Part shown: in pieces, positions 5,595 to 30,273 of the stretch
How the letters are laid out: each line of letters opens with the position of its first letter
Position numbering within the stretch: the first letter of the stretch is position 1
Source of the DNA: a virus
Taxonomy: Duplodnaviria > Caudoviricetes
IMG/VR virus record: IMGVR_UViG_3300025009_000105
Coordinates: 1 to 62,857 of that record
Length of the DNA stretch: 62,857 bases
Reading direction: 5' to 3' (one strand)
Program-made: the position numbers and the translations under genes
Notes under the pieces: generated by a model
Database searches by the model: none
Told to the model about the DNA's origin: nothing
Seen by the model: the letters and a program-made list of their open reading frames with translations, nothing else

Positions 5595-6164
5595 GTGCAG
5601 GAACAGGAGAATAATCCCATGAATGTCATTTTGAAACATTTGAGGCAAGTCGAGGAGGGGATGTCCCTGCTCGATCAGAACGAAGTAACCGAAGTCCTGC
5701 GGTTGTTAAGAGCGTGCAGGAGTTTAGGCGGGACGGCCTACATCTTTGGAAATGGGGGGAGCGCGGCGACGTCCAGCCACTTTGCGAACGACCTGGTGAA
5801 GATGGGCAGGTTGAGGGCGCACTGCTTGAGTGACCAGGTGCCCGTAATGACCGCGTACGGGAATGATGAGGGGTGGGGGAACATGTATGCCAACATGCTG
5901 CGAAAGTATTTCAACCCGGAGAAGGATGTGGCGGTTGGGATCTCGTGCAGCGGGAGCAGTGAGAATGTGATATGGGCACTGAAAGATGTGATCGAGTCGG
6001 GTGGGTCTGCGGCTGGGCTGACCGGGATTGACAACGATTCCGGTATTCACCTGGTAGGCGACATAAGGTTGGTCCATGCGAGGGTGCCGGACATACGGGT
6101 GCAGGAGGATATACACAGCATGGTGTGTCACGCACTGGCGCGTGGGATGCAGGAGGGGGAATGA
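5595..6164 (+). CDS. gmhA: sedoheptulose-7-phosphate isomerase (SIS domain)
   Basis: FGNGGSAATSSHFANDL, TAYGND, GISCSGSSENV, QEDIH motifs. Confidence 0.9.
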   Translation: MQEQENNPMNVILKHLRQVEEGMSLLDQNEVTEVLRLLRACRSLGGTAYIFGNGGSAATSSHFANDLVKMGRLRAHCLSDQVPVMTAYGNDEGWGNMYANMLRKYFNPEKDVAVGISCSGSSENVIWALKDVIESGGSAAGLTGIDNDSGIHLVGDIRLVHARVPDIRVQEDIHSMVCHALARGMQEGE

Positions 6165-8704: not shown

Positions 8705-8770
8705 TGGTATAATAAGAACACCCGCGACGTTGAGGCGTCCGGGTGTTTGACCAAAACCCTGTTGGAGGTT
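8705..8770 (+). promoter_or_regulatory. extended -10 promoter plus stem-loop leader of an HNH gene
   Basis: TGGTATAAT 8705-8713; GAACACCCG-C-GACG...CGTC-CGGGTGTTT stem; GGAGG SD. Confidence 0.6.
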
Positions 8771-8773
8771 CTG

Positions 8774-9418
8774 ATGAAAAATATTGTAGCACAGAAAACG
8801 TGTTCGTTGTGCAAGAAAGAAAAAGAGACGCGATATTTCAATAAAGACAAAAGCAGGGCGGATGGGTTGTCTTATGTGTGCCGAGCATGTTCCCAAAAAA
8901 GGTCTAATCTTTATTACAAGAATCACATAGAAGAACGACTTGCGAAATATAAAAAATATAGGGAGGACAATAAGGAGCGTTTACGCGTCAGGGCGAAAGA
9001 GTTGTACTTTTCCGACCCGAAAAGATTTAATGGATATGTCAAAAAATGGACGAATAAAAACATAGACCATGTAAAAACAAAGCAAAAAGAATGGCGCGAA
9101 AACAACGTGGAAAGAATAAAGAAAACCGTAAGAGAGTGGGCGGATGCGAATAAAGACAGGCGTGCATTGTCTGCCGAAAAACGCAGGGCATTAAAACATG
9201 CTGATGGCGGAATAGTAACAGCGCGGGAATGGAAAGACCTGAAAACGAAATACGGCAATAAATGTTTGCGCTGCGGAAGGGATGATGTAAAACTAACGAT
9301 GGATCATGCGACTCCGTTGTCCGCTGGCGGAAAACACGTAATCGAAAACATCCAGCCCCTCTGCGGTTCGTGTAATAGCATCAAGCATACACAGACAATA
9401 GATTATCGCCCCTTCTGA
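8774..9418 (+). CDS. HNH endonuclease with N-terminal zinc ribbon and basic helical repeats
   Basis: CSLC...CRAC; CLRC...DHATPLSAGGKHVIENIQPLCGSCN; AT-rich insert. Confidence 0.9.
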   Translation: MKNIVAQKTCSLCKKEKETRYFNKDKSRADGLSYVCRACSQKRSNLYYKNHIEERLAKYKKYREDNKERLRVRAKELYFSDPKRFNGYVKKWTNKNIDHVKTKQKEWRENNVERIKKTVREWADANKDRRALSAEKRRALKHADGGIVTAREWKDLKTKYGNKCLRCGRDDVKLTMDHATPLSAGGKHVIENIQPLCGSCNSIKHTQTIDYRPF

Positions 9419-14810: not shown

Positions 14811-16478
14811 ATGGCAAAAAAGAGTGAAAAAGAAAAACGCCGTGACCGCTTGGAGCGAGAACGCCTAAAACTCAAGAAACAACTTGCGCGGGACGAGGCC
14901 ATGATCAACTCCGATGAGCCGTTCACCGAGGAGGAAGTCGAACCCATCGAGGACGACGTACCAGAGGAATCGGAAAAGTCCATGGAAGCAGGCGAAGTCG
15001 CACTTTCGATGGGCGGTCCTACTTCCTTTGGCGAATTGGATATGGCGCGTGAGATGCAGGCAAAGAACGGCGAATTGCAATCGACCGCCTACGATGTGGA
15101 GGCACTCGTCCGTAACATCGTTTACCATCCCATGCTGACCCCTGCGGAAAAGTCCAACGCCATCAAAGCCGTTGGAAACGAGTTCGGAACGCGGGTGGAA
15201 TCCATTATGGACAAGCCCGTGATGAAGGAACTTGATATGGACTTGCTGGAGTTGGAGGCGCTGATCGCAAAAGACACGCGCGCTACTCCGGTTGCCGAAC
15301 GTGTCGGAAATTGGGTTGCAAAGGCGATCATGGGATCCACGGTGGAAAACAAACTCCAGGACAAGACGCACGTCCGAATTGCCATGGCGCGCGCCGCCCA
15401 GATGATCAGGCGCGGCGGCGAGGATGCAGAACAGGCGCGCGCTGAACTTCCCAAGATCAAGACTGCCGCAAAGAGCATGGGCATTGGCAGTATCGAGAAA
15501 ACGCAAAGCGCGGTGGTGATCGAGAAGGACGCCAGTGGAACGTGGCGCGCTGTGATGTGGCCTTCCAACAATTTCAAGGATTGGGACGGGGAGATCATCT
15601 CCGAAAAAGCCCATCTTGAATATGTGGAATGGGTCAATAAGAATATGGACTGCGCTCCCGTCTTTACGACCTGGCACAAACCCGAACTGGTTCGGGAGCA
15701 TCCGGTGGATTTCGTTTCCTATGAGAACGGTTTCCTGCTGATGAGTGCGCCACTGACCGAGGCGGAAGCCGGCGCCTTGCTGAAGGCACAGAAACTCACC
15801 GACATTGGAATGTCACATGGTTCATTGGTTTTCGAGCGCGACCCGCAAGACCCGCGCATCATAAACAAGTATCGAATGGTAGAGGTGTCTGACCTGCCGC
15901 TGGAAAACGCGGCCAATCCATTCACAGATTTTTCAACCCTCATAAAGGAGGCTGATATGGATACACTGAAATACCTTGCCGCAATTCTCGGCAGCGAGGA
16001 AAAGGCGAAAGCCTACCTCGATAAGACCGAGGGCAAACAGAAGGCGTTGCAGGCGGCTGGCGTGGAGACCAAAGAGGTGAAACCGGAAACGGTTGAAACT
16101 CCTGCGGTTGAAACTCCCGCTCCCGTTGCTCCCCCCGCGCCCAACACGGATGAGATCGTGGCGAAGGTTCTGAAGGAACTGGACATCGAAGGATTGCAGG
16201 ACTTCCTCAAGAAGTCGCAGGAATCCCTCGAGAAGGTGCCTGTCCTGGAGAAACTTGTGCAGGATCTCTCCGGCAACCGGGACGACTGGTTGGCGGAAAA
16301 GATTGCTCCCGCTGCCGAAAAGCGGTTCCTCTGGTCACGCGCTTCGGGAGACGAAACCAACGTCTTGAATAAAGACGATGCTGCCGACGAGGAACTCAAG
16401 AAAACCGCGGCAGGACTTCCCGAAAACTGGCTTGGTGATGCCCTCGGCGTCCAGCCACTCGTTCTCGAAACCAAGTAG
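14811..16478 (+). CDS. prohead protease-scaffold fusion
   Basis: D.DGEII, WH, GMSHG and EVS.LP...AANP protease motifs; Pro/Glu-rich scaffold C-terminus; precedes the capsid gene. Confidence 0.75.
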   Translation: MAKKSEKEKRRDRLERERLKLKKQLARDEAMINSDEPFTEEEVEPIEDDVPEESEKSMEAGEVALSMGGPTSFGELDMAREMQAKNGELQSTAYDVEALVRNIVYHPMLTPAEKSNAIKAVGNEFGTRVESIMDKPVMKELDMDLLELEALIAKDTRATPVAERVGNWVAKAIMGSTVENKLQDKTHVRIAMARAAQMIRRGGEDAEQARAELPKIKTAAKSMGIGSIEKTQSAVVIEKDASGTWRAVMWPSNNFKDWDGEIISEKAHLEYVEWVNKNMDCAPVFTTWHKPELVREHPVDFVSYENGFLLMSAPLTEAEAGALLKAQKLTDIGMSHGSLVFERDPQDPRIINKYRMVEVSDLPLENAANPFTDFSTLIKEADMDTLKYLAAILGSEEKAKAYLDKTEGKQKALQAAGVETKEVKPETVETPAVETPAPVAPPAPNTDEIVAKVLKELDIEGLQDFLKKSQESLEKVPVLEKLVQDLSGNRDDWLAEKIAPAAEKRFLWSRASGDETNVLNKDDAADEELKKTAAGLPENWLGDALGVQPLVLETK

Positions 16479-16488
16479 GAGGTGAACT

Positions 16489-18009
16489 ATGTTCCCCAAC
16501 AAACTCGATGGGACGGTTGATCCCGTCAAACTCGGTGCTGCCATCGCTGAAATGATGGTCAAAGCCGGTGGACCGCAACTGATGCAAAAAGGCACGGGTG
16601 CGTCCATTGGACCATACGTCCACGGCCCCGGTGGGCTGTTCGGCGTGCGTGGTCTTTCGCGCGGCATCATCTCCACCCATACCCAGATCACCGGGTCATT
16701 GGGCGAGATGCTTCCCATCATGCCCAGCATGGACACCAATCCCCTGTTCCCGTACATCACGGGTTTCCTGCGCTCCGATACGCAGGAAAAGGACGGCATC
16801 TGCGACGAGCCGGAGGAAGCCGCACCTTTCAAGACCTGTATCCAGACCACCGTGTTTGGGCGCAAGGAGTTCAAGACCCGGGAACTCGAAGTCAACCGGC
16901 TTGGACAGCGCATCAACCGCGGCGAGTTCATGGACTTGCAGTTGGAGAACTCCCCATTGGTCGCCTCCATGGGCGGACTCATGGCGTCGTTCTTTGGTCT
17001 GGACAACCAGGCTGCCGCAATCGCAGGTAACGATGTGGTCATGCGCATGGTGGAAGTCGGCGTTGCTTATCAGCGTTGGTTCTGCCCCCAGGTGTACACC
17101 GGCAACCCCGCCAACTCAAGCGCGGGTGGTGGGTACAAGGAGTTCATGGGGCTTGACCTCCTGATCTCCAAGACCAAGTTGGACGCCATCACCGGTACTC
17201 TCTGCCCCAGCCTGTACTCGGACATCAAATCCTTCGGTTATCGCCAGGTTTCAAGCACAACCGACCCGGATATTGTCCGCACCCTGACCACCATGATCCG
17301 CATTCTGACCCGCAAGGCTGTCCAGCAAGGGTTGGCACCGGTGCAGTTGGCAATCGTCATGCGCGAACCCCTGTTCTATGAACTGACCCGCGTTTGGCCT
17401 TGCCAGTACAACACCGACTCCTGCATCGGCTCCGCCTCCAACGGTCTGACCGGTGGCATCAACATGATCAATGACTTCCAGGTGACGATGCGTGACGCAA
17501 TGCGCAACGGAATGTACCTGCTCATCGACGGTCGGCAGATCCCCGTGATCGTGGATGACTGCATCATGGAGGAGAACGCCGCCGACAACCAGAACATCCC
17601 TGCCGGTGGGTTTGCTTCCGACATCTACATCGTCCCGCTGTCCGCCCGTGGCGGAACCATCAAGACCCTGTATTGGGAATACTTCAACTTCAATGGCTCG
17701 AACGCAGCCATCCCCTCCACCGCATCCCTTCCCAAGTACTTCTGGTCGGACAATGGCGTGTTCCTGTGGACCATGCTGACACCGCACGTCTGGTGTATTG
17801 ACCTCGCCGTGAAGGTCGAGCCTCGCATCATCCTGCGTACTCCGCAGTTGGCAGGCCGCCTGACCGATGTTGTCTATGTCCCGTTGCAGCACACCGATGA
17901 TCCTCTGCCCAGCCAGGACTACCACGTCAACGGTGGCGTGACCACTGGCTACCCGTTTGCCTCTCCGTTCAGTGAGTACAACCTCTCTGGACCCGGCGTA
18001 ACGGCGTAA
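16489..18009 (+). CDS. major capsid protein
   Basis: AGGAGG SD, strongly biased codon usage, follows protease, followed by terminator; KEFMGLDLLI and SDIYIVP. Confidence 0.8.
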   Translation: MFPNKLDGTVDPVKLGAAIAEMMVKAGGPQLMQKGTGASIGPYVHGPGGLFGVRGLSRGIISTHTQITGSLGEMLPIMPSMDTNPLFPYITGFLRSDTQEKDGICDEPEEAAPFKTCIQTTVFGRKEFKTRELEVNRLGQRINRGEFMDLQLENSPLVASMGGLMASFFGLDNQAAAIAGNDVVMRMVEVGVAYQRWFCPQVYTGNPANSSAGGGYKEFMGLDLLISKTKLDAITGTLCPSLYSDIKSFGYRQVSSTTDPDIVRTLTTMIRILTRKAVQQGLAPVQLAIVMREPLFYELTRVWPCQYNTDSCIGSASNGLTGGINMINDFQVTMRDAMRNGMYLLIDGRQIPVIVDDCIMEENAADNQNIPAGGFASDIYIVPLSARGGTIKTLYWEYFNFNGSNAAIPSTASLPKYFWSDNGVFLWTMLTPHVWCIDLAVKVEPRIILRTPQLAGRLTDVVYVPLQHTDDPLPSQDYHVNGGVTTGYPFASPFSEYNLSGPGVTA

Positions 18010-18415: not shown

Positions 18416-18457
18416 TTTCAGGCGCGCACCGCGTATTGCAATTTTTCTGCATTGGTG

Positions 18458-18571
18458 TATAATCGTGAGTGCGCGAGTAGCATAGTTCTAGGCCAACTGT
18501 GTGACGCAACCGCTTCCATTGCCTCGCGCGCTCACGATTGTCCATCATTAGGAAGCGAAAGAGGAAGCGTG
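18458..18571 (+). promoter_or_regulatory. promoter plus three-way-junction RNA leader with an anti-SD loop
   Basis: TATAAT 18458-18463; 17-bp stem 18461-18477/18523-18539; loop CGCTTCC complementary to GGAAGCG at 18551 and 18563. Confidence 0.6.
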
Positions 18572-19039
18572 AAAAAAATCCCATTAACGCAAGGTAAATT
18601 CGCCATTGTTGATGACGTTGATTATGAACGTCTGTCGAAGTTTAAGTGGTATTGCCATTGTGGGTATGCTCGGAGAATGGGCGATGGAAAGGCAATTCAC
18701 ATGCACCGGGAAATTCTCTCCCCGCCTGATGGTTTTATAATAGACCATGCCAACGGAAACAGACTCGATAATCGCAGGGAGAATATACGGATATGCACAT
18801 TCGCCCAGAACACCCAAAATGCAGAGCGCCGTTCCGACAACTCCAGCGGATACAAGGGGGTTAGTTGGCATACAAACAAAAAGTGGAGAACGCAGATTAT
18901 AGTAAACGGGAAAGTAACACACGTTGGCATGTTCTCGAATATCATAGATGCCGCAAGGGCATACAACGAGGCGGCAATAAAATATTATGGGGAGTTTGCA
19001 AAATTGAATGAAATCCCACAGGAGAGTGTGTCATGCTAA
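18569..19039 (+). CDS. HNH endonuclease with C-terminal AP2 domain
   Basis: IPLTQGKFAIVD, MHREI, DHANGNRLDNRRENIR, SGYKGVSW, AARAYN. Confidence 0.92.
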   Translation: MKKIPLTQGKFAIVDDVDYERLSKFKWYCHCGYARRMGDGKAIHMHREILSPPDGFIIDHANGNRLDNRRENIRICTFAQNTQNAERRSDNSSGYKGVSWHTNKKWRTQIIVNGKVTHVGMFSNIIDAARAYNEAAIKYYGEFAKLNEIPQESVSC

Positions 19040-19953
19040 CTGGCGAAATCCTTTTGCTTGGCGGAAGCGGAACTTTGGGGAGAGCAATTATCAAGCGCGC
19101 TTTCGATGAAAAGTGGGATTGTAGGATTGCGATTTTCTCAACTGACCCGATGAAACATCACGCCATCCGTTCTGAATATCCAGAAGTCCAGTCAATTATT
19201 GGTGATATTCGAGACTTTACGACACTTTATAATGCGATGTCTGGAAAGGACTATGTTCTGCATCTGGCGGCACAAAAACATATTCCAGACGGCGAATATA
19301 GCTCAATCGACACATTCGGCGTCAACGTCACCGGTTCGCTTAATGTTGCGCAGGCTGCAATGCAATTGAACATTCCGCATGTCTTGGCGATCTCCACGGA
19401 TAAATCCTGCCATCCGGCAAACGCGTATGGCGCAAGCAAATACGCGATGGAAAAAATCTGGCAGGAATATTCCCGTTTGGGGGTGAGAACAAGATTTCAC
19501 TTGACGCGGTACGGAAATGTCCTCGAGTCCACCGGTTCAGTAATCGAAATATGGAACAATGCAATCGAGCGTGGTGAGAAGATCAAGATGGTTGACCCGG
19601 ACATGACGCGTTTCTTTTTATCTCCATCGCAAGCCGTTGATCTAGTACAGCTTGCCGTGAAACTGGATTCGGGATTGATACTCATTCCGAAACTTCCCTC
19701 TCTGTCCATTGGAAAACTGGCAGAGTACACGGTTGGCGAACAGGAAATGGAACTCATTCCCATGCGCCCGGGCGAGAAATTGGACGAGGAACTCCTGACG
19801 CTCGAGGAGACCGCATTCGCCGTTGAATCCGAAAGTTTCTTTTTCCTGCATCCCACCACCACCGAGAGACTGAATAACGACATCCAGCCATTCAACAGCG
19901 CAGGGGCAAAGGAACTGACAAAGGAACAACTCACGGAGTTGCTCAATGGCTGA
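19033..19953 (+). CDS. nucleotide-sugar 4,6-dehydratase (PseB/CapD family)
   Basis: GGSGTLG, AAQKHIP, ISTDK, YGASK, RYGNV, MTRFF, RPGEKL. Confidence 0.9.
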   Translation: MLTGEILLLGGSGTLGRAIIKRAFDEKWDCRIAIFSTDPMKHHAIRSEYPEVQSIIGDIRDFTTLYNAMSGKDYVLHLAAQKHIPDGEYSSIDTFGVNVTGSLNVAQAAMQLNIPHVLAISTDKSCHPANAYGASKYAMEKIWQEYSRLGVRTRFHLTRYGNVLESTGSVIEIWNNAIERGEKIKMVDPDMTRFFLSPSQAVDLVQLAVKLDSGLILIPKLPSLSIGKLAEYTVGEQEMELIPMRPGEKLDEELLTLEETAFAVESESFFFLHPTTTERLNNDIQPFNSAGAKELTKEQLTELLNG

Positions 19954-20665
19954 TTTCCTGGACATCAAGGAGTTCGGGGAAGGCGCAAAGATACCATCCC
20001 CCACTCTCTGCATCGTCCTTGTTACATACGAGCGAACCCCTCTGGCGTTGCGCACTATTCAAGGCGTGTGCGAGAACCTCGACTATCCACAGCGCACCTG
20101 GTATATTGCTGACGACGGAAGTTCGAGAGAACACGTTGATAGACTGGTGGGAGAACTGAAGTCCAGAGGGGAAAACCTGTATGCCATGCACAACCAGACA
20201 TTCGCAGAGCGTCCTTATTGCGGCAGGGGATGGAACCACGCCTTGCGCCGCGCCCACGATCTGACGGACTACGTTCTTTGGCTTGAGGATGACTGGCATC
20301 TTGAAAAGCCACTTGACATCCGACCCTATATGCGCGCCCTGCTGGAACGGGAGGATGTGGGCATGATCTCCATGCGTGGATTATCCAAAGGACTTCGCTT
20401 GGAAGTGGATGGGCATAACGGCATCCATTACTTCAAGGTGTTGCGGGAAGGAGACCGGGATTCCATGGCTTATTCTGGCAACCCGCTTATTCGCCACACT
20501 CGCTACCTGGAGTATGGTTGGTTTTCAAACGTGGAAACGCCCGGAGACATTGAGATCGTGTGCGATCACAATTACAGACACCACTTCGGTCCGAACATCT
20601 GGAGACCCGCCGAGATAAGCGGTTGGGGCATCTGGGGTCACATCGGCAGTTCACGTACATGGTAG
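19946..20665 (+). CDS. glycosyltransferase, GT-A/GT2-like
   Basis: VLVTYER, IADDGS, WLEDDW, HIG. Confidence 0.85.
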   Translation: MADFLDIKEFGEGAKIPSPTLCIVLVTYERTPLALRTIQGVCENLDYPQRTWYIADDGSSREHVDRLVGELKSRGENLYAMHNQTFAERPYCGRGWNHALRRAHDLTDYVLWLEDDWHLEKPLDIRPYMRALLEREDVGMISMRGLSKGLRLEVDGHNGIHYFKVLREGDRDSMAYSGNPLIRHTRYLEYGWFSNVETPGDIEIVCDHNYRHHFGPNIWRPAEISGWGIWGHIGSSRTW

Positions 20666-20671
20666 GAGACT

Positions 20672-21394
20672 ATGACACTTCCAACTTTGACAATCGGCAT
20701 CTGTACTTATAAGCGCCCTCATTATGGGATGCTGACGATTAACTGCCTTAAGGGTTGGCTTGGTTATGACGGTCCGCGCAAGTTCCACATTGCTGATGGC
20801 GGCAGTCCACAGGAGGAGATTGATTACTATCTCAAGATCCTCGAAGGCGAGAAGGTGACGGTGGAAGTCACGAACAACCTGGCGGATATGGTCAACTCCT
20901 GCGCCCGGAACGGCGGGGATGTGTGGCTGACCACCCTGGATGACTTCTGCCCACGCTATCCAATCAACATCACGCCCGATGTGGAGTTCCTTATGTCCCG
21001 TGAGGATGTGGGCGTGGTGAGGATGGCGCGGTTGGCGTTCTGGGGAAGCGGGTCTGGAGACCCGGAGACATCCGCCGATCTGTTGCAGTTCCATGGACTG
21101 CACTGGTGGAAGTTGAGTAAGGAGCGTTCCAAGGACGGCTACATGTGCAGCATTGGAACGCATCTGTACCACAGGCGTTTTTGGGATGCCTATGGCGACA
21201 TTCCGTCCTGCGCTCCCAACGTGCCGGGGCAGGCTGAACTGAATGGTGCGGCACGCTTCAATGGTCATCCCGGTCCTGCGGTCGCTGTCCCGATGCGTTT
21301 CGGGCAGGATTCTCCGCATTACCAGGAACCAATTTGGCATCTCGGCATCTGGAGAACGGACGAGTATGCAGAAACGGCAGGGTCCAGACTATGA
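20672..21394 (+). CDS. glycosyltransferase, GT-A/GT2-like (paralogue of the upstream GT)
   Basis: ICTYKRP, IADGGS, TLDDF, HLG. Confidence 0.8.
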   Translation: MTLPTLTIGICTYKRPHYGMLTINCLKGWLGYDGPRKFHIADGGSPQEEIDYYLKILEGEKVTVEVTNNLADMVNSCARNGGDVWLTTLDDFCPRYPINITPDVEFLMSREDVGVVRMARLAFWGSGSGDPETSADLLQFHGLHWWKLSKERSKDGYMCSIGTHLYHRRFWDAYGDIPSCAPNVPGQAELNGAARFNGHPGPAVAVPMRFGQDSPHYQEPIWHLGIWRTDEYAETAGSRL

Positions 21395-22476
21395 CGTACA
21401 AAATCTCTCTTTCGGCTGTGAACATTCCAGAGGAGACCTATCCCCTGATGGAGAAGGCTTTGCGCGCCGGCAAGGTGGGGCAAAGCGAATACGTGGAGCA
21501 ATTCGAGCATCTGATCGCAGATTTCGTGGGCTCCAAGTATTGCGTTGCGATCTCCAACGGAACGATGGCGGATGCGGTCGCTGTGGCTGCCATGAAGGAG
21601 AAGTACGGCATCAAGCGAGTGGTGGTGCCTGCCCTGACCTTCATTGCCCAACCCAACTCCGTGCGCTACAACAACCTGGAAGTCGTCTTTGAGGATGTAA
21701 CGGATGACTGGCAGATGGACATGCTGAAGTACGATCAGGAACACTCGTATGACAGCGAAACCCTTTTCTTTATCACAGACCTAATGGGCAGGGTGTCGTC
21801 TCGACCCGCACCCGCTTATCGCTTCATCGAGGATGCGTGCGAGGCTTTTGGTAGTTTTGTCGAGGGCGACAAGTTCTCTGGTACGCTTGGAAAGATGGGA
21901 ACCTATTCGTTCTTTCCTTCCCACACTATCTCGACCGGCGAAGGCGGAGCAATCGTCACGGACGACGTTGAACTTGCCGGTCTGTGCCGTCAGTTGCGCG
22001 CCCATGGTTTCCGTTCCATGTCGCCGTTTGACAAATTCTCCTTCCCGATCATGGGTTTCAATGCCCGGATGACCACCATGCAGGCGGTCATTGGGATTGC
22101 CGTGATGGGACACATCAGCGAGTATATCTACAACAGGCGCAAGATCATGGTCGCCATGCAAGATGCGGTAGGCGGCTTCTATGATCGAGAAGGCGATACC
22201 ATGATCATCCCGCACGGTTTCCCCATCCAGTACAAAACGGAGATGGCAAGAAACAGTGCCATGTTCGAGATATTGGAGTCGGGAATTGAGTGCAGGAAGT
22301 TCTTCTCCTGCATCCCGACCGACGAGGAACCCTACTCAAAGGATAACGTCCTGGAGTTCCCCAATGCAGAGCGTATCGCCCACACCCACCTGTATGTCCC
22401 GTGCCACCAGAACATGACACTGGAGGATGTGGACTATATCGCCAAAGTCGTGAAAGGAATTGGAGGCAGGGTATGA
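21391..22476 (+). CDS. DegT/DnrJ-family PLP enzyme with Lys-to-His change; probable NDP-4-keto-6-deoxy-sugar 3-dehydratase (ColD/E1-like)
   Basis: SNGT, PALTFIA, IEDACEAFG; SFFPSHTISTGEGG has His at the Schiff-base Lys position. Confidence 0.8.
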   Translation: MTYKISLSAVNIPEETYPLMEKALRAGKVGQSEYVEQFEHLIADFVGSKYCVAISNGTMADAVAVAAMKEKYGIKRVVVPALTFIAQPNSVRYNNLEVVFEDVTDDWQMDMLKYDQEHSYDSETLFFITDLMGRVSSRPAPAYRFIEDACEAFGSFVEGDKFSGTLGKMGTYSFFPSHTISTGEGGAIVTDDVELAGLCRQLRAHGFRSMSPFDKFSFPIMGFNARMTTMQAVIGIAVMGHISEYIYNRRKIMVAMQDAVGGFYDREGDTMIIPHGFPIQYKTEMARNSAMFEILESGIECRKFFSCIPTDEEPYSKDNVLEFPNAERIAHTHLYVPCHQNMTLEDVDYIAKVVKGIGGRV

Positions 22477-23054
22477 ATCCTACATTTGATGGCGAGACAG
22501 CAGAGACCTGGTTGCGTGGTCTGAATGGAATGAGTGACCACAATGCAAAGCACATACTCTCCACCTTCGCTTATTTTGGATTACCGAAATCAATGCTGGA
22601 TGTTGGCTGTGGGGATGGCACAATGGTCAAACTGGCGCGGTTGCTGGGAGTGGAGGCCTACGGTATCGATCAGTTGGTGCAACCCGACTGGCCTCCGTAC
22701 TATTATTATCGAAACCTCGTGGACGCTTTCAGGCTGGATCATCCCGTAGAGATGGTGCTGTGTCTGGAAGTTGCAGAGCATATCCACGAAACCGCGCACA
22801 GCACATTCATGGATACCATAGTAGAGAACATGGTGCCTGGCATAGGTGCAAGGCTTATCTTTAGCGCGGCGCATCCAGGACAGGACGGAACTGGACACGT
22901 TGCCATGCGCCCAGCAAAATACTGGCGGGAGGAGTTCACCAACAGAGGTCTGACCCACAACCGCATGGACACCATTAACCTTGCCCTTCTGTGGTCGCAC
23001 ATCCAAAGTCCGCTTGGGCATCTCGCCGCCAACTTGCAGGTGTTTCACAAATGA
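22473..23054 (+). CDS. class I SAM-dependent methyltransferase (probably acting on a sugar)
   Basis: LDVGCGDG, CLEVAEHI, FSAA.PGQ.G.GHV. Confidence 0.85.
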   Translation: MNPTFDGETAETWLRGLNGMSDHNAKHILSTFAYFGLPKSMLDVGCGDGTMVKLARLLGVEAYGIDQLVQPDWPPYYYYRNLVDAFRLDHPVEMVLCLEVAEHIHETAHSTFMDTIVENMVPGIGARLIFSAAHPGQDGTGHVAMRPAKYWREEFTNRGLTHNRMDTINLALLWSHIQSPLGHLAANLQVFHK

Positions 23055-23356
23055 ACGACACTCTCGCCTTGTTGGTTTTCCTGTTCGTGGTGTTTTTGCT
23101 CCTGCGCTGGAAGTATCATCAGTGGCTTCGGAAGCACGACTGGTGGAACTGGTACAGCAACATCTACTTGAAGTCGTGGCATTGGAAACACTACCGGATA
23201 AGGCGACTTCTGAAAGCGGGTTATGTGTGTGAACATTGCGGAAGGAGACGAAAGCCATTGCAGGTACACCACTTGAGTTATGACGATCTATGGCACGAAA
23301 AGATGGGCGACACGATGGTTCTGTGCGTTCCATGCCACAATAGGATACACCAATGA
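23051..23356 (+). CDS. small HNH protein with an N-terminal TM helix
   Basis: LALLVFLFVVFLLL; YLKS..W; CEHC...LQVHHLSY...LCVPCH. Confidence 0.75.
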   Translation: MNDTLALLVFLFVVFLLLRWKYHQWLRKHDWWNWYSNIYLKSWHWKHYRIRRLLKAGYVCEHCGRRRKPLQVHHLSYDDLWHEKMGDTMVLCVPCHNRIHQ

Positions 23357-24327
23357 TCATTTCGCGCACCCCTCTGCGGGTGAGTCTGGTCGGCGGAGGA
23401 ACAGACACTCCGGCATTCTATGAAAAAGCCCCCGGCGCGGTGGTGAGTTTTGCCATATCGAAGTATATCTATGTATCCGTTAACGAAAAGTTCGACGGCA
23501 CCTTTCGGGTTTCCTACTCCAGGACAGAGAACGAAGCGACAATCGACGGGATACAACACGATCTGGTGCGCAGGGCGCTACAGACCTTCCGAGTTGTATC
23601 GGGTCTGGAGATAACATCCGTTGCCGACATTCCGGGATCTGGAACTGGACTTGGTTCATCCAGTTCATTCACGGTCGGATTGGTCAATGCTCTTGGGCAT
23701 CACCTGCATAAGAACAACCCCAAGGGTGGCGGATTGGCGGAGTTCGCCTACGACATCGAGGCAACCGGACACCCGGAAATCGGCAAGCAAGACCACTACG
23801 CCGCAGCCTGTGGCGGACTGAACCTGTTCCGTTTCAACAAGAAGTCTGTCACCATCAAGCCCGTGGAGGCGGAGGATAGCGACCTGGTGGAATTTGAAAA
23901 GCACCTTGTTCTCCTGTGGACTGGCATCACCCGCCCATCGTCCATTCCGCTTAGAAGCCAGATGAGGAACTTCTCCGCCTTGGATAAAACCATGAAAGCG
24001 GGAATTGAAATGGCTGCGTATGCCAATGAACTGTACAGGCAGATGCAGGCAGGAAACTTTCACATGATTGGCGAGTATCTGCATGAGAACTGGTTGCTCA
24101 AGAAGTCCATCTCGGACGCCATCTCCAACGAAAAGATAGACTGGTTGTACGAGGTGGCAACGAAAAACGGGGCAGATGGAGGCAAGTTGTGCGGCGCGGG
24201 TGGAGGCGGATTCCTTCTATTCCACTGCGACCCGGACGCCCGGGACAGGATCGCCAAGGCAACCGAATTGCGCCGTGTTGATTTCAGGATTGATACGAAA
24301 GGAAGCGACATAATCTATGAAGCCTAA
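23353..24327 (+). CDS. hddA: D-glycero-alpha-D-manno-heptose-7-phosphate kinase (GHMP family)
   Basis: SRTPLRVSLVGGGTD, DIPGSGTGLGSSS, GKQDHY, GGKLCGAGGGGF. Confidence 0.85.
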   Translation: MIISRTPLRVSLVGGGTDTPAFYEKAPGAVVSFAISKYIYVSVNEKFDGTFRVSYSRTENEATIDGIQHDLVRRALQTFRVVSGLEITSVADIPGSGTGLGSSSSFTVGLVNALGHHLHKNNPKGGGLAEFAYDIEATGHPEIGKQDHYAAACGGLNLFRFNKKSVTIKPVEAEDSDLVEFEKHLVLLWTGITRPSSIPLRSQMRNFSALDKTMKAGIEMAAYANELYRQMQAGNFHMIGEYLHENWLLKKSISDAISNEKIDWLYEVATKNGADGGKLCGAGGGGFLLFHCDPDARDRIAKATELRRVDFRIDTKGSDIIYEA

Positions 24328-25171
24328 ACTGTTGTTTGTGGACGACAAGCCTAGTCGTTGTGAGGATGCCATCAAAAGATACGGGGATGAATACGAAGTT
24401 ATTCTTGCTCATACTGTGGCGGACGCCTTACGTCAAATGAGTGGGAATAACCTGTCGGTTGTCTCTCTCGATCACGACCTGAACGGTCAAGATTTTCAAG
24501 ACCCGGACGAATCTACAAGCGGAATGGCGATCCTCCGCTACCTTCAGAAAACCGGATGGCCTTTCGATCAAAGACCTAGACCGCGTTTTCTGATACATTC
24601 AACGAACCTGTTCGCCGCAAGTGCGATGGTTGACATTCTATGGCAAGGCGGGTTCGATGCAATCTCCCAGCCCTACAACTGGAAGCAGTATCAGCATGGC
24701 GTGGTCGCCGGGGCTTTCGATGTCATCCACCCGGGCTACATCTATCTCCTGCGGGAAGCGAAGGAACTGTGCCATAAGGTCACGGTGCTGCTCCACGACA
24801 AACCCAACCAGGTCTTTGAACTTTCAGACCGCGCCACCGCCTTACTCGCCCTGAAGTATGTGGATGATGTCATACCCTACACAAGCGAGGAAGGATTGGA
24901 CAAGTTGCTGGAAACGCTTCATCCAGATGTGCGCATCGTCGGAAACGACCACAAGGGAAGCACCACGCGTCCAAACATTAACGTCAAGACCATCTACCAC
25001 GACAGGCAACATCTTTGGTCCGCTACGAGGTACAAGAAAATGATAGCAGAGAAAGTTGGCGTTGTTCCGAGATACGGAATACATTATGCGCCTTGTAAAC
25101 ATTGTGGTGTGTTGGTGGACGTTAACGATGACGGGGTTTGCTTTGATTGTTTCAACAAGGGGAAAGAATGA
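24317..25171 (+). CDS. fusion of a cyclic-phosphate-processing receiver-like domain and a TagD/HldE-type nucleotidyltransferase
   Basis: N-term LFVDD...SLDHDL...SG..I...IHSTN; C-term GAFDVIHPGY, R...L.ALKYVD.V, G.D. Confidence 0.75.
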   Translation: MKPKLLFVDDKPSRCEDAIKRYGDEYEVILAHTVADALRQMSGNNLSVVSLDHDLNGQDFQDPDESTSGMAILRYLQKTGWPFDQRPRPRFLIHSTNLFAASAMVDILWQGGFDAISQPYNWKQYQHGVVAGAFDVIHPGYIYLLREAKELCHKVTVLLHDKPNQVFELSDRATALLALKYVDDVIPYTSEEGLDKLLETLHPDVRIVGNDHKGSTTRPNINVKTIYHDRQHLWSATRYKKMIAEKVGVVPRYGIHYAPCKHCGVLVDVNDDGVCFDCFNKGKE

Positions 25172-26094
25172 AAATCCTCGTCTCCGGTGGCGCAGGGTTC
25201 ATAGGCTCCAACACCGTCAAGTTGCTTGCCAAGCGCGGGCACGACGTATTGGTCATTGACAACTTCTCAACCGGCAGGAGCGAGAACCTCAAGAGTTTCA
25301 AGGGCAAGGTGGTCATTGCCGACATCACGGATTACAAGTCTGTGGATGCCGCGTTCTACGAGTTCGGTCCCGATGCGGTTCTGCACCTGGCTGCGCAGAG
25401 TGCCATCACCACGTCCATCAACGACCCGCAGAAAGACCTAGAGATCAACGGGATGGGCACAGTGAACATGCTCCGGGCAGCACAGGCTTTTGAGACAAAG
25501 CGGTTCGTGTTCTCGTCCACATCTGCCGTGTACCGGGAAACCAGTCCGTTGTTCGGCGGAGTGAGCGAGAAGTGGCCTTGCGCTCCCACTTCCCCCTACG
25601 GCATCTCCAAGTTGACCTGTGAACACTACATCCGTCTTATGCACCCCAACCACATGATCTTGCGCTATGGGAATGTCTATGGACGCCACCAGAGACCTGT
25701 CGGACAGAACCAGGTGATCGCCCGGGCGTTGAGCCACTTCATCCACGGAGACGACTTCTTTGTAACCGGAAGCGGAAAGCAGAAACGTGATTTCGTCAAT
25801 GTCGAGGATGTGGCTTACGCCAACCTGCTTGCCTTGACTTCCGAAGTGACAGGCACGTTCAACGTCGCCACTGGCAAAAACCACTCGGTCAACGAAGTGC
25901 TTGCCATCCTGGAACGCCTGTACGATGTGGTAGGATATGAGTGGGAACACACAAACTCCCCTGACCCGCGTGGTGACGTGGCATTGGATGTCTCTGCGAT
26001 CAGGAGAGAACTCGGTTGGAAAGCAGTTGTTTCATTGGAAGCCGGACTGAAGGACACCGCAAAATGGTGGAACAACGAGGAAGCGAAACGATGA
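25168..26094 (+). CDS. NAD-dependent epimerase/reductase (GalE-like extended SDR)
   Basis: GGAGFIGS, HLAAQ, YGISK, RYGNVYG, RDFVNVEDVA. Confidence 0.9.
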   Translation: MKILVSGGAGFIGSNTVKLLAKRGHDVLVIDNFSTGRSENLKSFKGKVVIADITDYKSVDAAFYEFGPDAVLHLAAQSAITTSINDPQKDLEINGMGTVNMLRAAQAFETKRFVFSSTSAVYRETSPLFGGVSEKWPCAPTSPYGISKLTCEHYIRLMHPNHMILRYGNVYGRHQRPVGQNQVIARALSHFIHGDDFFVTGSGKQKRDFVNVEDVAYANLLALTSEVTGTFNVATGKNHSVNEVLAILERLYDVVGYEWEHTNSPDPRGDVALDVSAIRRELGWKAVVSLEAGLKDTAKWWNNEEAKR

Positions 26095-26933
26095 GCGCGC
26101 AACTGTTTCAGGGCGACTGCATAGAATTTATGAAAACGATGCCGGAAAAGTCGGTGGATGCGGTGATTACCTCGCCACCGTACAATTGCCGAAAAGACTA
26201 CGGAACATTTCTGGACGAAATGCCGTGGTCGGAATATTATGTCTGGATGGGACATTTGCTCGACGAATTTTATAGGGTATTAGTAGACGGCGGATTAGTT
26301 GCCATAAATATTCCTGGAGTTATCCGGTGGCAATCAGAGCATAAATATTCTGAGACGTGGACAGACTTCGACGCGTCATACAAGACTCACAGAAACGGAG
26401 TAAAGGTAATCGGGAAGGGGAGAATTGAGCCTGTTGGATTCAGGCTGTTTCAAATGATGGAAGATAGAGACAGCCACATACGAGAACCGATTGTGTGGGT
26501 AAAAGGAAGTGAGGGAAACGCCATAAGTAGCGATTACAGAATGGGATGCGATAGCGACCCCTATATGCGACCGGCGCATGAATTAATATTATTGGGAACA
26601 AAAAACCGATGGTTTCATAGAGGCGGCACGGGTAGGCGAGGGAAAGACGCAGTTCCGTTTTTGGACGAAACAAAAGATGTCTGGTTTATTACACCCGAAA
26701 GGAATAAAAACCATCCTGCTGTTTTCCCGATTGAATTACCGTCGCGCTTAATAAAGTTGTTTACCCATGCAAATGACGCACTGGTCTTTGATCCATTCAT
26801 GGGTAGCGGAACAACAGGTGTGGCTTGCGCGCGGTTGGGCCGCAACTTTATCGGTTGCGAGATTGATCCTAAATACTACGCCATCGCAAAGAAACGGATT
26901 TCGGAAACACACAGGCAGGGAGTTCTGTTATGA
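26091..26933 (+). CDS. DNA methyltransferase, beta class (probably N4-cytosine)
   Basis: TSPPY, HPAVFP, DPFMGSGTT; AT-richer than neighbouring genes. Confidence 0.9.
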   Translation: MSAQLFQGDCIEFMKTMPEKSVDAVITSPPYNCRKDYGTFLDEMPWSEYYVWMGHLLDEFYRVLVDGGLVAINIPGVIRWQSEHKYSETWTDFDASYKTHRNGVKVIGKGRIEPVGFRLFQMMEDRDSHIREPIVWVKGSEGNAISSDYRMGCDSDPYMRPAHELILLGTKNRWFHRGGTGRRGKDAVPFLDETKDVWFITPERNKNHPAVFPIELPSRLIKLFTHANDALVFDPFMGSGTTGVACARLGRNFIGCEIDPKYYAIAKKRISETHRQGVLL

Positions 26934-29746
26934 CGGTTAATGTTTATATTAATCCAGATTATGCAAACACGCCTCAGCAGAAGGACAACGGCGGGATTCG
27001 TAGAGTGATTTCTGCCATGGCTGAACATCTGCATAAATTCGATATAAATGTCGTACACAATCCAAACGATGCCGATGTTATTAATAATCACGGCGGCGCG
27101 CTTGTTGAGGTTCGCGGAACGCCAATGGTAAATTCGTGCCACGGTTTATACTGGAGCAGGCAACCTTGGGGCGACGGTTTCTACGAAGTAAATAAACAGG
27201 TAGTAGAATCAATGTGCAGGTCTGACGCATGGACAGCGCCTTCGGATTGGGTTAATCAAGCGATGCGCAGGGGCGGATATTTCTACCCCGTCACGGTGTA
27301 TCATGGGGTTAACCCTGACGAATTTCTCCCATCCAAGACGCCCGGAAATTACATCCTTTGGAACAAGCTTCGCCAAGATTACGTCTCCAATCCAGACGAC
27401 ATGCAGAGACTTGCTGCCAGGATGCAGAACAGGAGTTTCGTCTCCACCATCGGATCTCAAACCCCGAACGTCTCCATCACCGGCGCGATCTCCTATGAGG
27501 CCATGCACAAACTGGTGGCAGAGGCAGGCGTGTATCTCTCCACGGTCCGGGAGACCTTCGGTATTGGAATATTGGAAGCCCTGGCGTGCGGCGTACCGGT
27601 GGCAGCGTTCGATTGGGGTGGCAATTCCGAGATCCTCTCGCATGGCTACACCGGTTATCTTGCTCCCCCAGGAGACTTCGTGGCGCTGGCGGAATGCGTG
27701 GAACGCTGCTTCTCTGAACGTGACAGGCTCTCCAGGAACGCAGTCAGTGACGTCCGGGCAAGGTGGACATGGGAACCGCGTATCGAGCAATACGCCAATA
27801 TATTCAAGCGGGTGCATGACCGCTTCAAGACAGACATTCCGAAGGTCAGTATCATCCTGACCGCCTATAAACTGGACACCTACCTTCCGGCTTGCCTAGA
27901 TTCTGTACAGGCTCAAACCTATCCGAACTTTGAGTGCCTGGTCATCGACGATGCCCAACTCAAGTCCACAGAAACGATTGTGAGGAACTATGCCGTCCGA
28001 GATCCACGCATCCGATACATACCAACTCCTAACAATTTTGGACTGCCCGGTGCTAGAAATTTTGGTTGCTCGCAGGCTAAAGGGCATTACATCCGACATC
28101 TGGATGCTGACGATTACCTTGCACCGAACGCGCTTGAGTTGGAAGTCGCCGCGCTGGACAAGGATCGGGGAACCGATATTGTCTATGGTCATCTGGAAGT
28201 AGTGCGGGAGGACGGGACGCGCTTTCTGGACAAACATCAGCAACCGATACGTGGCGGATGGCCTCCCGAACAATTTGACTGGCACAAGCAGATGTCGCAC
28301 ATGAACCAGATCCCATCCTGCGCAATGGCAAGGCGGGAAGTGTTCGAGAGGGTGGGCGGATACCGGGAGCGCATGAAGCGCAATGAGGATGCGGAGTTCT
28401 GGTGCCGCGCCACTTCGCTTGGCTTGAGGGCAAAGAAGTTCACGCAGGCAGTCACCTACTTCCACCGGGAGCGCAATGACAGCAAGGGCGCATTGGAGTG
28501 GAAAAACGAAGGTGGAGAACCGGACTGGACCGCCTGGTTCCCGTGGAGGGCGGGTGCAGCCAACTCCGAACAGGCTCGGAAACTGGAAGGGCAGATACGC
28601 CTTCCATACATCGTTCCGTTTGGGGCGCAGGGCAAACCCCCGGACGGCATGAAGTTCTGGTACGTCCACGACTACGCTTATCCGGTTGTCTCTGTTATTG
28701 TCACCTGCGGACCCGGGCACAAGCATTACCTGATCGATGCCCTGGACTCTGTGCAAGCCCAGACCTTCCCGGATTGGGAATGCCTGGTGGTCAACGACAC
28801 TGGCGAGGAATGGAATAACGACATTCCGGGCGCGCCGTGGGCAAGGGTGATCAACCTGAAGGGCAACCAGGGAACTTCCAAAGCGCGTAACGCAGGCTTC
28901 CGCTTTGCGCGTGGCAGGTACATCGTCTGGTTGGACGCGGATGATTACTGGTTGCCTTGGTTTCTCGAGAAGATGGTCGGATACGCCGAAGTGAACGATG
29001 GCGTGATATTCTCCGACCTGATCGCCTTACAGGACACATACAAGGTCTATCGGTATGACGAGTTCGACCCGCAACGCCTGAAACTGTCCATGCGCTACCC
29101 GGGTTCATCCGTCCTATACCCCCGTAATGTCGTGCAGGCAGTCTTTGATAAGCAGGGTGGATACGACACCGAGATACCAGGTATGGAGGACTGGGATTTC
29201 CAGTATGCCGTCCACGACCTCGGCTTCTGTGCTTATCATATAGACGAACCGCTATTTGTGTACAGAATGCTTTCATCCACGAAGCGGGAAAAGGATTATA
29301 ATAAAATCGAATTGATACGCGCCTACATGGATAAGAAGTGGAGTGCGTATCGGAAAGGCGAGAAACCATTCATGTGTGGATGCCAGCAACCCAAAAAGAA
29401 ACCTTCGGCGCCCCTTCCGGCAAGCACCCTTAACAGCTCCGGCAACTTCAGCGCGGATGCCATCAAGACCATGGAAACGTCCGACCAGAACCAGATGGTC
29501 ATGTTGGAATACATTGGACCAATGGAAGGCACGTTCTCCATTCGGTCCCGTGTGGACAAGACCAAGATATACCGCTTCGGGAATAATCCCGGGCACAAAG
29601 CCCGTGCGGTGTTTTTGGGAGATGCGGAACTCCTGACTTCCATGATGGATGGTCAGGGCAACGCTTCCTACCGTATCGTCAACCAGGGAGGCGCGGGCAT
29701 ACCCTATGACCCGATTGCTTTCCTCGGACAACCAATCAGTTCATAA
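26930..29746 (+). CDS. multidomain glycosyltransferase: GT4 + GT2 + GT2 + C-terminal CGC-containing domain
   Basis: ETFGIGILEALACGVP (GT4); two VS.I...LDSVQAQT.P..ECLV / ARN.G / LDADDY / ED..F modules (GT2); tail MCGC...YRFG. Confidence 0.9.
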   Translation: MTVNVYINPDYANTPQQKDNGGIRRVISAMAEHLHKFDINVVHNPNDADVINNHGGALVEVRGTPMVNSCHGLYWSRQPWGDGFYEVNKQVVESMCRSDAWTAPSDWVNQAMRRGGYFYPVTVYHGVNPDEFLPSKTPGNYILWNKLRQDYVSNPDDMQRLAARMQNRSFVSTIGSQTPNVSITGAISYEAMHKLVAEAGVYLSTVRETFGIGILEALACGVPVAAFDWGGNSEILSHGYTGYLAPPGDFVALAECVERCFSERDRLSRNAVSDVRARWTWEPRIEQYANIFKRVHDRFKTDIPKVSIILTAYKLDTYLPACLDSVQAQTYPNFECLVIDDAQLKSTETIVRNYAVRDPRIRYIPTPNNFGLPGARNFGCSQAKGHYIRHLDADDYLAPNALELEVAALDKDRGTDIVYGHLEVVREDGTRFLDKHQQPIRGGWPPEQFDWHKQMSHMNQIPSCAMARREVFERVGGYRERMKRNEDAEFWCRATSLGLRAKKFTQAVTYFHRERNDSKGALEWKNEGGEPDWTAWFPWRAGAANSEQARKLEGQIRLPYIVPFGAQGKPPDGMKFWYVHDYAYPVVSVIVTCGPGHKHYLIDALDSVQAQTFPDWECLVVNDTGEEWNNDIPGAPWARVINLKGNQGTSKARNAGFRFARGRYIVWLDADDYWLPWFLEKMVGYAEVNDGVIFSDLIALQDTYKVYRYDEFDPQRLKLSMRYPGSSVLYPRNVVQAVFDKQGGYDTEIPGMEDWDFQYAVHDLGFCAYHIDEPLFVYRMLSSTKREKDYNKIELIRAYMDKKWSAYRKGEKPFMCGCQQPKKKPSAPLPASTLNSSGNFSADAIKTMETSDQNQMVMLEYIGPMEGTFSIRSRVDKTKIYRFGNNPGHKARAVFLGDAELLTSMMDGQGNASYRIVNQGGAGIPYDPIAFLGQPISS

Positions 29747-29823: not shown

Positions 29824-30273
29824 ATGAAAACCAATGAGTATTACAGAAAATGGCGCGCAGAACATCGAGAAAGCGTTAGAAATTACTCTAGGAAATACCG
29901 CAAAACGCACCTCGAAAAAGTTTTGACAAAAGAGAGAGAACGTCACCGACTAAATAAAGAAAAGGAAAATTCCTATTCAAGAGAATACAGCAGGAAACAC
30001 AGTGAAGAAAAAAGGCTCGAGCGAATCACTTTACGGAAAGAAGTTCTGGAACACTACGGCGGGAAATGCGCCTGTTGTGGCGAGACAAAATACGAGTTTC
30101 TGTCAATCGATCACATTAATGGAGGCGGAAGCAAACACAGAAAAGAAATTAACGGAATGATATGTCCGTGGCTAAAAAACAACAATTTCCCCGATGGATT
30201 TCAGGTTTTGTGTTACAACTGTAATCAGGCTAAAGGAATCTACGGGTATTGTCCACACCAAAAAGGAGAATAA
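29824..30273 (+). CDS. HNH endonuclease
   Basis: basic N-terminal repeats; HYGGKCACCGE...LSIDHINGGG...QVLCYNCN. Confidence 0.88.
   Translation: MKTNEYYRKWRAEHRESVRNYSRKYRKTHLEKVLTKERERHRLNKEKENSYSREYSRKHSEEKRLERITLRKEVLEHYGGKCACCGETKYEFLSIDHINGGGSKHRKEINGMICPWLKNNNFPDGFQVLCYNCNQAKGIYGYCPHQKGE

Follow-up and report, generated by a model that had tools for sequence, protein, structure and literature searches.

The cREC family, described by Iyer, Burroughs, Aravind and colleagues (Viruses 2021, PMC7824862; Viruses 2022, PMC9503650), is presented there as experimentally uncharacterised: its members are predicted to process cyclic phosphates or ADP-ribose (ADPr) derivatives, and Iyer et al. call the active site metal-independent. 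In the accessible text of these papers, RNA repair and NAD/ADPr processing are the only contexts given for the domain. Heptose enzymes encoded by viruses are the subject of commentaries on Tang et al. (Science 2024). In their accessible text the heptose nucleotidyltransferases are single-domain, kinase-fused or isomerase-kinase-fused; the phosphatase step is given as absent from viral heptose gene sets (PMC11461863); a fusion of phosphatase and nucleotidyltransferase is not among the architectures mentioned, while the primary paper could mention one; and nucleoside diphosphate (NDP)-heptoses are described as innate-immune agonists in vertebrates. A phage module, "contig 53", is described by Pyle et al. 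(bioRxiv 10.1101/2023.12.21.572611): according to the available text, a bifunctional HAD/APH enzyme, a cytidylyltransferase and a glycosyltransferase are all required to place heptose on 5-hydroxymethylcytosine (5hmC) in E. coli. No paper linking cREC to heptose or to sugar-nucleotide synthesis was found in our literature search. Here we analyze the virus record IMGVR_UViG_3300025009_000105 (62,857 bp, the whole record, in the following "the window"; CheckV completeness 100%), where a single open reading frame (ORF) joins a cREC domain to a cytidylyltransferase-like (CT) domain. We propose, with a probability of about 0.62, that this ORF encodes a bifunctional heptose-1,7-bisphosphate phosphatase / heptose-1-phosphate nucleotidyltransferase of a phage-encoded NDP-heptose pathway. 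The pathway itself is known: what is probably new is this variant of it, together with a sugar-nucleotide context for cREC.

The ORF and its parts are the following:

24317..25171, + strand: fusion of cREC, CT and putative zinc ribbon, 284 amino acids (aa) plus stop (from ORF, Pfam and AlphaFold2)
24317..24676, + strand: cREC (receiver-fold) domain, aa 1-120 (from Pfam, conservation, model and structural neighbours)
24689..25060, + strand: cytidylyltransferase-like domain, aa 125-248 (from Pfam, motifs, profiles and Foldseek)
25079..25159, + strand: CxxC-x13-CxxC tail, a putative zinc ribbon, aa 255-281 (from sequence; pLDDT of the model is 56-65 here)

Both domains score above the Pfam cut-offs: cREC_REC (PF20274) matches aa 6-108 with an E-value of 3.9e-11 and 43.9 bits (cut-off 27; the genome scan gives 46.2 bits), and CTP_transf_like (PF01467) matches aa 130-216 with an E-value of 4.5e-9 and 37 bits, against a cut-off of 21. 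The motifs LFVDD, SLDHDL and IHSTN are located at aa 6-10, 50-55 and 93-97, respectively; in the second half, the HxGH position reads HPGY (H138-P-G-Y141, nt 24728-24739) and WSAT, at 25016-25027, takes the place of the (R/I)STT motif. The first-pass annotation had described just such a domain, joined to a TagD/HldE-type domain with HPGY, and motif positions, Pfam, AlphaFold2 and Foldseek all bear it out. The protein is classed here with the cREC family and the cytidylyltransferase-like superfamily, and not with GmhB, HddC or the HldE domain II and TagD equivalogs. Its start overlaps the stop of the upstream GHMP kinase gene by 11 nt, and its TGA overlaps the ATG of the downstream short-chain dehydrogenase/reductase (SDR) gene as ATGA (25168-25171), an arrangement suggestive of joint translation of the three genes. 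The location "directly after hddA" given previously is thus right as to position, while the upstream gene is HddA-like rather than an HddA equivalog.

The AlphaFold2 model, based on a 32-sequence alignment (predicted local distance difference test, pLDDT, 88.7; predicted template modelling score, pTM, 0.67), contains a receiver (REC)-type beta-alpha domain, followed by a TagD/HldC-type domain. D9/D10, D52/D54 and H94-N97 are predicted to lie at the C-terminal ends of beta1, beta3 and beta4; receiver domains carry their phosphorylation site at these strand ends. Structural neighbours found by Foldseek agree with the two folds: for the N-terminal half, BeF3-activated ArcA, PmrA and other REC domains (TM-score 0.64-0.68 by target); for the C-terminal half, TagD 1coz (TM-score 0.81 by target, root-mean-square deviation 2.2), an RfaE-like archaeal protein, the Fom1 cytidylyltransferase and HldC. 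The ESM Atlas model is also in agreement, with a TM-score of 0.87 to a cREC cluster and 0.71-0.73 to Response_reg. The four-cysteine tail, which had not been pointed out before, is not present in the other 31 of the 32 aligned fusions; similar CxxC...CxxC tails are found on some cREC, CT and cREC-CT proteins of the clade (P0035, P0122, P0036, P0130 and L009:6926-7492).

The residues expected in a cREC active site are conserved. D9, D10, R14, S50, D52, D54, P89, H94 and N97 are invariant in the 32 aligned fusions, and the proposed catalytic set (D9/D10, R14, D52-H53-D54, H94-S-T-N97) is invariant in 25 cREC domains of this clade. When the comparison is extended to 65 sequences, including 64 distant stand-alone cRECs, D10, D52, D54 and H94 are still invariant, and D9, R14, H53 and N97 are kept in at least 90%. 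The window protein therefore has the full signature of the published family (an acidic pair after beta1, LDHDL after beta3, HSxN after beta4), with which it also shares a PF20274 score above the gathering cut-off, a mainly phage-borne distribution and the lack of a histidine kinase partner. It differs in context, with a nucleotide-sugar cassette around the domain and a sugar nucleotidyltransferase as fusion partner, and in the role here proposed, that of a monoesterase instead of the opening of cyclic phosphates. The RNA-repair or NAD/ADPr context is not encountered here: Pfam scans of the window revealed no ligase, Nudix, 2H, sirtuin or Macro domain.

The distribution of the family was evaluated by searching 1.84 billion entries with a profile of the cREC clade: 2,583 representatives (clusters at 50% identity) were matched at E <= 1e-3, and 29 at E <= 1e-30. 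Among 33 longer matches that were scanned, the only fusion partners are CT (4 cases) and one prohead protease; in the latter (P0241, 321 aa) a prohead serine protease (Peptidase_S78) carries a C-terminal cREC, which suggests capsid packaging of some cRECs. In a word-indexed search, 30 of the 120 proteins listed carry both cREC and CT, the window's own included, and all 30 are metagenomic. GenBank phages match the fusion through its CT half only, with 0 of 46 records covering at least 80% of it.

The CT half retains invariant positions as well: G128, F134, H138, G140, Y141 and S235, among others, in the 32 fusions. HPGY is also invariant in 14 CT proteins without cREC, 13 of which carry an N-terminal segment of the haloacid dehalogenase (HAD) type. 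The overall count of HPGY (237 of 243) is biased, as an HPGY peptide pattern had served to collect the viral and genome loci; since, in addition, CTs collected by way of the kinase mostly have HxGH, the invariance of HPGY was in part rejected as independent evidence. A 123-sequence tree, obtained with a hidden Markov model of 133 positions derived from stand-alone CTs and also used to define architecture classes, places the cREC-linked CTs in one group (34 rows: 28 fused, 5 adjacent, 1 alone; SH-like approximate likelihood ratio test 91), with the moderate support, few alignment columns and simple midpoint rooting of this tree to be kept in mind. HldE domain II, HldC and HddC perform the step proposed for this half, and its fold matches HldC and TagD. 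It differs from HldE domain II and HldC by HPGY in place of HxGH, and by a WSAT without the Arg of the "STTR5" motif, as this is given in the accessible text of a commentary on Tang et al.; HddC has an unrelated fold (PF00483), that of a GT-A-like nucleotidyltransferase.

An indication for the role of the cREC half comes from the nearest CT relatives outside cREC fusions. These are HAD-CT fusions of 240-260 aa, whose N-terminal domain is a small EcbF/BcbF-like HAD (TIGR01689, 25-57 bits), with intact DxDxT, TARG, K and DD motifs. They share the FDVIHPGY and WS(A/S)T motifs with cREC-CT, the CT domains being 40-47% identical by best local alignment, and rfaE_dom_II is the best NCBIfam match for 6 of 9 of them. 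They are located in operons of the type kinase-SIS-[HAD-CT]-SDR (L028, L037, L039, L060, L081 and L104), and one is known from a cultured phage: gp206 of Synechococcus phage SynMITS9220M01, annotated "hypothetical protein", is a HAD-CT fusion with neighbours annotated as heptose-7-phosphate kinase, phosphoheptose isomerase and ADP-heptose epimerase. Such neighbours are likewise named as heptose enzymes by the annotators of the cultured phage Cr30. Both fusion types have a phosphatase-type domain N-terminal to an HPGY CT and the same partners (kinase, GmhA and SDR); they differ in the presence of HAD instead of cREC and in the localization of GmhA, adjacent to the HAD-CT fusions and distant in the window, and HAD-CT fusions are themselves uncharacterised. 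Since close CT relatives are fused to an intact HAD in kinase-GmhA-[HAD-CT]-SDR operons, the cREC domain stands where a phosphatase stands.

Viral heptose loci were also collected starting from the kinase: 80 loci were kept from at least 527 contigs. The isomerase, whose gene gmhA is present in 61 of the 80, comes immediately after the kinase; 44 loci have a CT. As to the phosphatase, a GmhB-like HAD is found in 18 loci, a small HAD in 4, cREC in 5 and none is detected in 53; in no locus are two types present. The GmhB-like HADs are stand-alone proteins (PF13242 and PNK3P), located beside a canonical HxGH CT. Mutual exclusion between cREC and gmhB, and association of cREC with the kinase gene, are both observed: no locus has both phosphatase types, and the kinase lies upstream of cREC in 27 of 32 cREC loci (those with at least 1.1 kb of upstream sequence), at less than 3 kb. 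A separate gmhB or hddC beside the fusion was looked for and not found: a small HAD is present in 0 of 85 cREC loci (the motif-fished set), a GmhB-like HAD in no cREC locus of the kinase-anchored set (80 loci), and HAD-IIIA and PF00483 in none of five related virus records. Two clusters, L060 and L218, also include a transaldolase, an enzyme that makes sedoheptulose-7-phosphate.

Other CT fusions were encountered in the course of this analysis. L116:5910-6839, on a Pacearchaeota metagenome-assembled genome (MAG) contig, encodes a GmhA-CT fusion of 310 aa with HPGY, adjoining GHMP kinase, DegT and SDR genes and containing no kinase domain. L269:2223-3503, on a large viral contig, encodes a fusion of CT and phosphoenolpyruvate mutase, of the phosphonate type known from Fom1; an HddA-like kinase gene is located about 2.5 kb downstream. 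The Atlas lists viral CT-UDP-glucose dehydrogenase and CT-RpiB fusions.

The cREC loci, grouped in 65 clusters at 95% identity, have a recurrent gene order; HPGY or cREC peptide patterns were the means by which many of the loci were collected, so that gene-order counts depend on these motifs. In four of the five loci lacking the kinase at the expected place, a DegT gene lies directly upstream of cREC; in L163, where enough upstream sequence is available, the kinase is found beyond DegT. The SDR is the constant downstream partner, being found within 3 kb in 36 of 38 loci. The CT is fused to cREC in 6 of the 65 clusters and separate in 9; it is relocated upstream of the kinase in L186 and L189, and is of the canonical HxGH type in L186 and L205. 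In L195, where cREC is stand-alone, an HddC-type NTP_transferase replaces the CT, in the order cREC-NTase-SDR-GT (nucleotidyltransferase, NTase; glycosyltransferase, GT) with 4-nt overlaps: this fits with the CT half, and not cREC, doing the job of HddC. The slot after cREC, when filled, always contains a nucleotidyltransferase, either a fused, split or relocated CT or, once, the HddC-type enzyme. At L145:8402-8710 an Acb2/Tad1-hairpin protein (anti-CBASS/Thoeris sponge family) lies between cREC and a large glycosyltransferase, in the usual place of the SDR.

The remaining components of the proposed pathway are found in the same genome:

23353..24327, + strand: HddA-like GHMP kinase (from profiles and PDB relatives)
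25168..26094, + strand: GalE / GDP-mannose-dehydratase-like SDR (from profiles and gene order)
5595..6164, + strand: GmhA-like sedoheptulose-7-phosphate isomerase (SIS_2), outside the sugar cassette (from profiles and PDB matches)
19033..29746, + strand: sugar cassette, between head and tail genes (from profile scans and GT2 alignment)

The four best solved relatives of the kinase are all heptose-7-phosphate kinases, with 4n3o (E 1.4e-36) followed by 3k85 and WcbL 4usk. The isomerase, not included in the first-pass annotation, has phosphoheptose isomerases as 13 of its 15 PDB matches; its gene immediately precedes the terminase region and is separated from the sugar cassette by about 17 kb, as is also seen in related phages. 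All 5 of the 5 related virus records have a SIS_2 gene. No match to HAD-IIIA (TIGR01662) or NTP_transferase (PF00483) was found in the whole 62,857-bp record (0 matches each), nor was a HAD of any kind found in Pfam scans of 13 + 64 window ORFs, in agreement with the previous report that neither GmhB nor HddC is recognisable in the window. Of a module of four activities, isomerase-, kinase- and transferase-like genes are present; cREC becomes the candidate phosphatase through its position and the exclusion of other types. With GmhB (HAD-IIIA), the cREC half would share the step, between heptose kinase and nucleotidyltransferase; being a non-homologous receiver fold, with no DxDxT at the domain start, it could be a functional analogue at most.

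The gene content of the window is that of a siphophage, with terminase, portal, tape-measure, tail, lysis and replication genes. Besides the HddA-like kinase, the cREC-CT fusion and the SDR already described, the sugar cassette includes a PseB-like SDR, two GT2-type paralogs, a DegT aminotransferase, a methyltransferase and a 938-aa protein composed of GT4 and two GT2 domains; it is interrupted by genes for an HNH endonuclease and a DNA methylase. The same cassette is carried by related phages. A protein of about 230 aa, following the PseB-like SDR, was considered as the missing transferase of relatives devoid of a CT and rejected, as it features the GT2 hallmarks TYKR, DDGS and EDDW and no GxGxR motif.

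Taken together, these comparisons support the assignment first suggested by the first-pass annotation, where the cREC half takes the GmhB step and the fused transferase the HddC step. In the scheme that follows we infer all catalytic activities, as well as the heptose substrate, the anomer, the nucleotide and the glycosylation target. The phage GmhA-like isomerase would convert host sedoheptulose-7-phosphate to D-glycero-D-manno-heptose-7-phosphate, to which the HddA-like kinase would add the anomeric phosphate; the N-terminal cREC domain would then remove the 7-phosphate (GmhB step), and the HPGY CT domain would join heptose-1-phosphate to a nucleoside monophosphate (HddC/HldC step). The product would be passed to the translationally coupled SDR and from there to the aminotransferase, methyltransferase and glycosyltransferases of the cassette. 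The location of the cassette between head and tail genes makes virion glycosylation its likely use: judging from this position, virion proteins would be favoured as the acceptor, with DNA as the alternative suggested by the precedent of Pyle et al. That precedent, compared by the description in the available text, is similar in that a phosphatase-containing enzyme and one of the cytidylyltransferase family supply the heptose donor, and different in that the fusion partner of HAD is an APH-like kinase and heptose is transferred to 5hmC of DNA.

HAD phosphatases and receiver domains share aspartyl-phosphate chemistry, and in the DxD motif of the former the second Asp is the general acid/base. 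By comparison, cREC might operate by an aspartyl-phosphate mechanism on the receiver scaffold, with D52 as the nucleophile, D54 (D+2) as general acid/base and D9/D10, R14, H94 and N97 completing the pocket. Whether cREC is a true aspartyl-phosphate sugar-phosphate phosphatase on a receiver fold is, in our estimate, an evenly balanced question.

A number of observations weigh against the bifunctional heptose enzyme. A phosphatase is not detected within about 6 kb in 53 of the 80 kinase-anchored loci, indicating that the step can be host-supplied or encoded elsewhere, so that the window phage might also use a host GmhB. The published predictions for cREC, in the accessible text, are of cyclic-phosphate or ADPr-derivative processing, and offer no precedent for a monoesterase activity. 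Moreover, among the 14 cREC loci flanked by 3 kb or more on each side, 11 are devoid of a CT, and two essentially complete relatives (CheckV 100% and 96%) have no PF01467 match above cut-off and no PF00483: the constant partners of cREC are thus the kinase and the SDR, not the transferase, and phages without a CT must borrow a host transferase or stop at heptose-1-phosphate. The 53 kinase-anchored loci, the published predictions and the 11 loci devoid of a CT would fit with a heptose pathway in which host GmhB, or another host phosphatase, performs the 7-phosphatase step and cREC acts otherwise: it could be involved in proof-reading or salvage of cyclic or mis-phosphorylated sugar phosphates, in regulation of the transferase, or in the degradation of a host nucleotide-sugar or ADP-ribose-type signal. 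We consider this explanation unlikely. It does not account for the mutual exclusion of cREC with both HAD types (0 of 85 loci, and no double type in 80), nor for cREC taking the place of HAD in a fusion with an orthologous CT; furthermore, no NAD, RNA-ligase, Nudix or 2H genes were found in Pfam scans of the window or of cREC neighbourhoods, and no histidine kinase.

The substrate of the module may also be questioned. The CT half scores below the cut-offs of both equivalogs tested, TIGR02199 (HldE domain II; 43 bits, cut-off 181.5) and TIGR01518 (TagD; 42.2 bits, cut-off 165.4); by profile it is as close to TagD, a glycerol-3-phosphate enzyme, as to HldE domain II; when the profile of the fusion CTs is compared to solved structures, TagD 1coz is the best match (9.9e-19, versus 1.7e-9 for HldC 5x9q). 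The kinase and isomerase are likewise weakly assigned, with 151 bits against the cut-off of 600 of the HddA equivalog NF049969, and 56 bits against an equivalog cut-off of 209, respectively: with scores so far below the cut-offs, the heptose substrate is a matter of prediction. In addition, of 34 bacterial or archaeal loci with a stand-alone HPGY CT, 32 have neither a kinase gene nor gmhA in the vicinity, indicating that the HPGY clade is not tied to heptose everywhere. In marine Bacteroidota and Gammaproteobacteria MAGs (L084-L115), stand-alone HPGY CTs of 132-140 aa are common; their contexts vary, as they are found beside rml genes, trehalose synthase or LapB, and have no heptose kinase or isomerase nearby. 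The module might activate a non-heptose compound, such as a polyol or another ketose-derived sugar phosphate, to give a CDP-linked product as with TagD. This appears improbable when confronted with the nature of the closest solved relatives of the kinase (the top four) and of the isomerase (13 of 15 PDB matches to GmhA), with the transaldolase of two related clusters, with the HAGH, HldE-II-like CTs that fill the slot in 38 of the 44 kinase-linked loci with a CT, and with rfaE_dom_II as best match for most HAD-CT fusions.

A further variant retains heptose and reverses the order of the two reactions: the CT would act on heptose-1,7-bisphosphate first, and cREC would remove the 7-phosphate from NDP-heptose-7-phosphate. 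Such a compound resembles the ADP-ribose phosphates proposed for other cRECs, the substrates predicted for the family in the available text being nucleotide-sugar phosphates, and a fusion would permit either sequence of steps. This order, too, we regard as having little chance, as known pathways, according to the accessible commentary on Tang et al., place GmhB before the nucleotidyltransferase, and as cREC is stand-alone, with no transferase of any kind, in most well-flanked loci. Finally, replacement of the catalytic second His of HxGH by Tyr, at a position important in TagD and CCT, could mean that the CT half is catalytically dead and only a scaffold or binding module, a view that is very hard to sustain in the face of the invariance of H138, G140 and Y141 in 32 fusions and of HPGY in the 14 non-cREC proteins (13 with a HAD-type segment), of the retention of the other motifs and of the fold, and of the HxGY and HxGF CTs which, in the kinase-anchored set, share their slot with the canonical HxGH ones.

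Some additional features of the window and of related phages are reported here. Two large proteins at the capsid position (16489-18009 and 14811-16478, + strand) have no Pfam, PHROG or GenBank-phage match; in related phages this position is occupied by a DUF6582 protein and a protein of about 500 aa. DNA methyltransferases are encoded at four places (26016-26933, 46130-46564, 53030-53728 and 55567-56349) and comprise two of the N6_N4_Mtase type, a Dam-like one and an MT-A70; one of these genes is located in the middle of the sugar cassette; in a related phage (L003:5954-8776) the cassette DNA methylase is split by an intein with a LAGLIDADG domain (941 aa). An ArdA-like anti-restriction gene is found at 2025-2531, and HNH or AP2-HNH homing endonucleases at 8747-9418, 18452-19039, 22991-23356, 29824-30273, 44486-45055 and 48087-48584.

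If the proposed bifunctional activity is correct, it would be the first enzymatic, metabolic function assigned to the cREC family, with a receiver scaffold, rather than a HAD domain, acting as the metabolic phosphatase. The heptose-bisphosphate phosphatase step would then have been solved by viruses in at least three unrelated ways, namely by the GmhB-like HAD, by the small HAD fused to CT and by cREC. This would explain the phosphatase gap reported for virus-encoded NDP-heptose gene sets, and cREC-CT and HAD-CT would represent two new heptose-enzyme fusion architectures. Whole heptose-based glycosylation cassettes are predicted to sit within the structural modules of uncultured siphophages. 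For the family at large, cREC gains a concrete, commercially accessible candidate substrate, heptose-1,7-bisphosphate, and a simple assay; by extension, the cRECs linked to RNA repair and to ADPr may be ribose-phosphate phosphomonoesterases, rather than cyclic phosphodiesterases.

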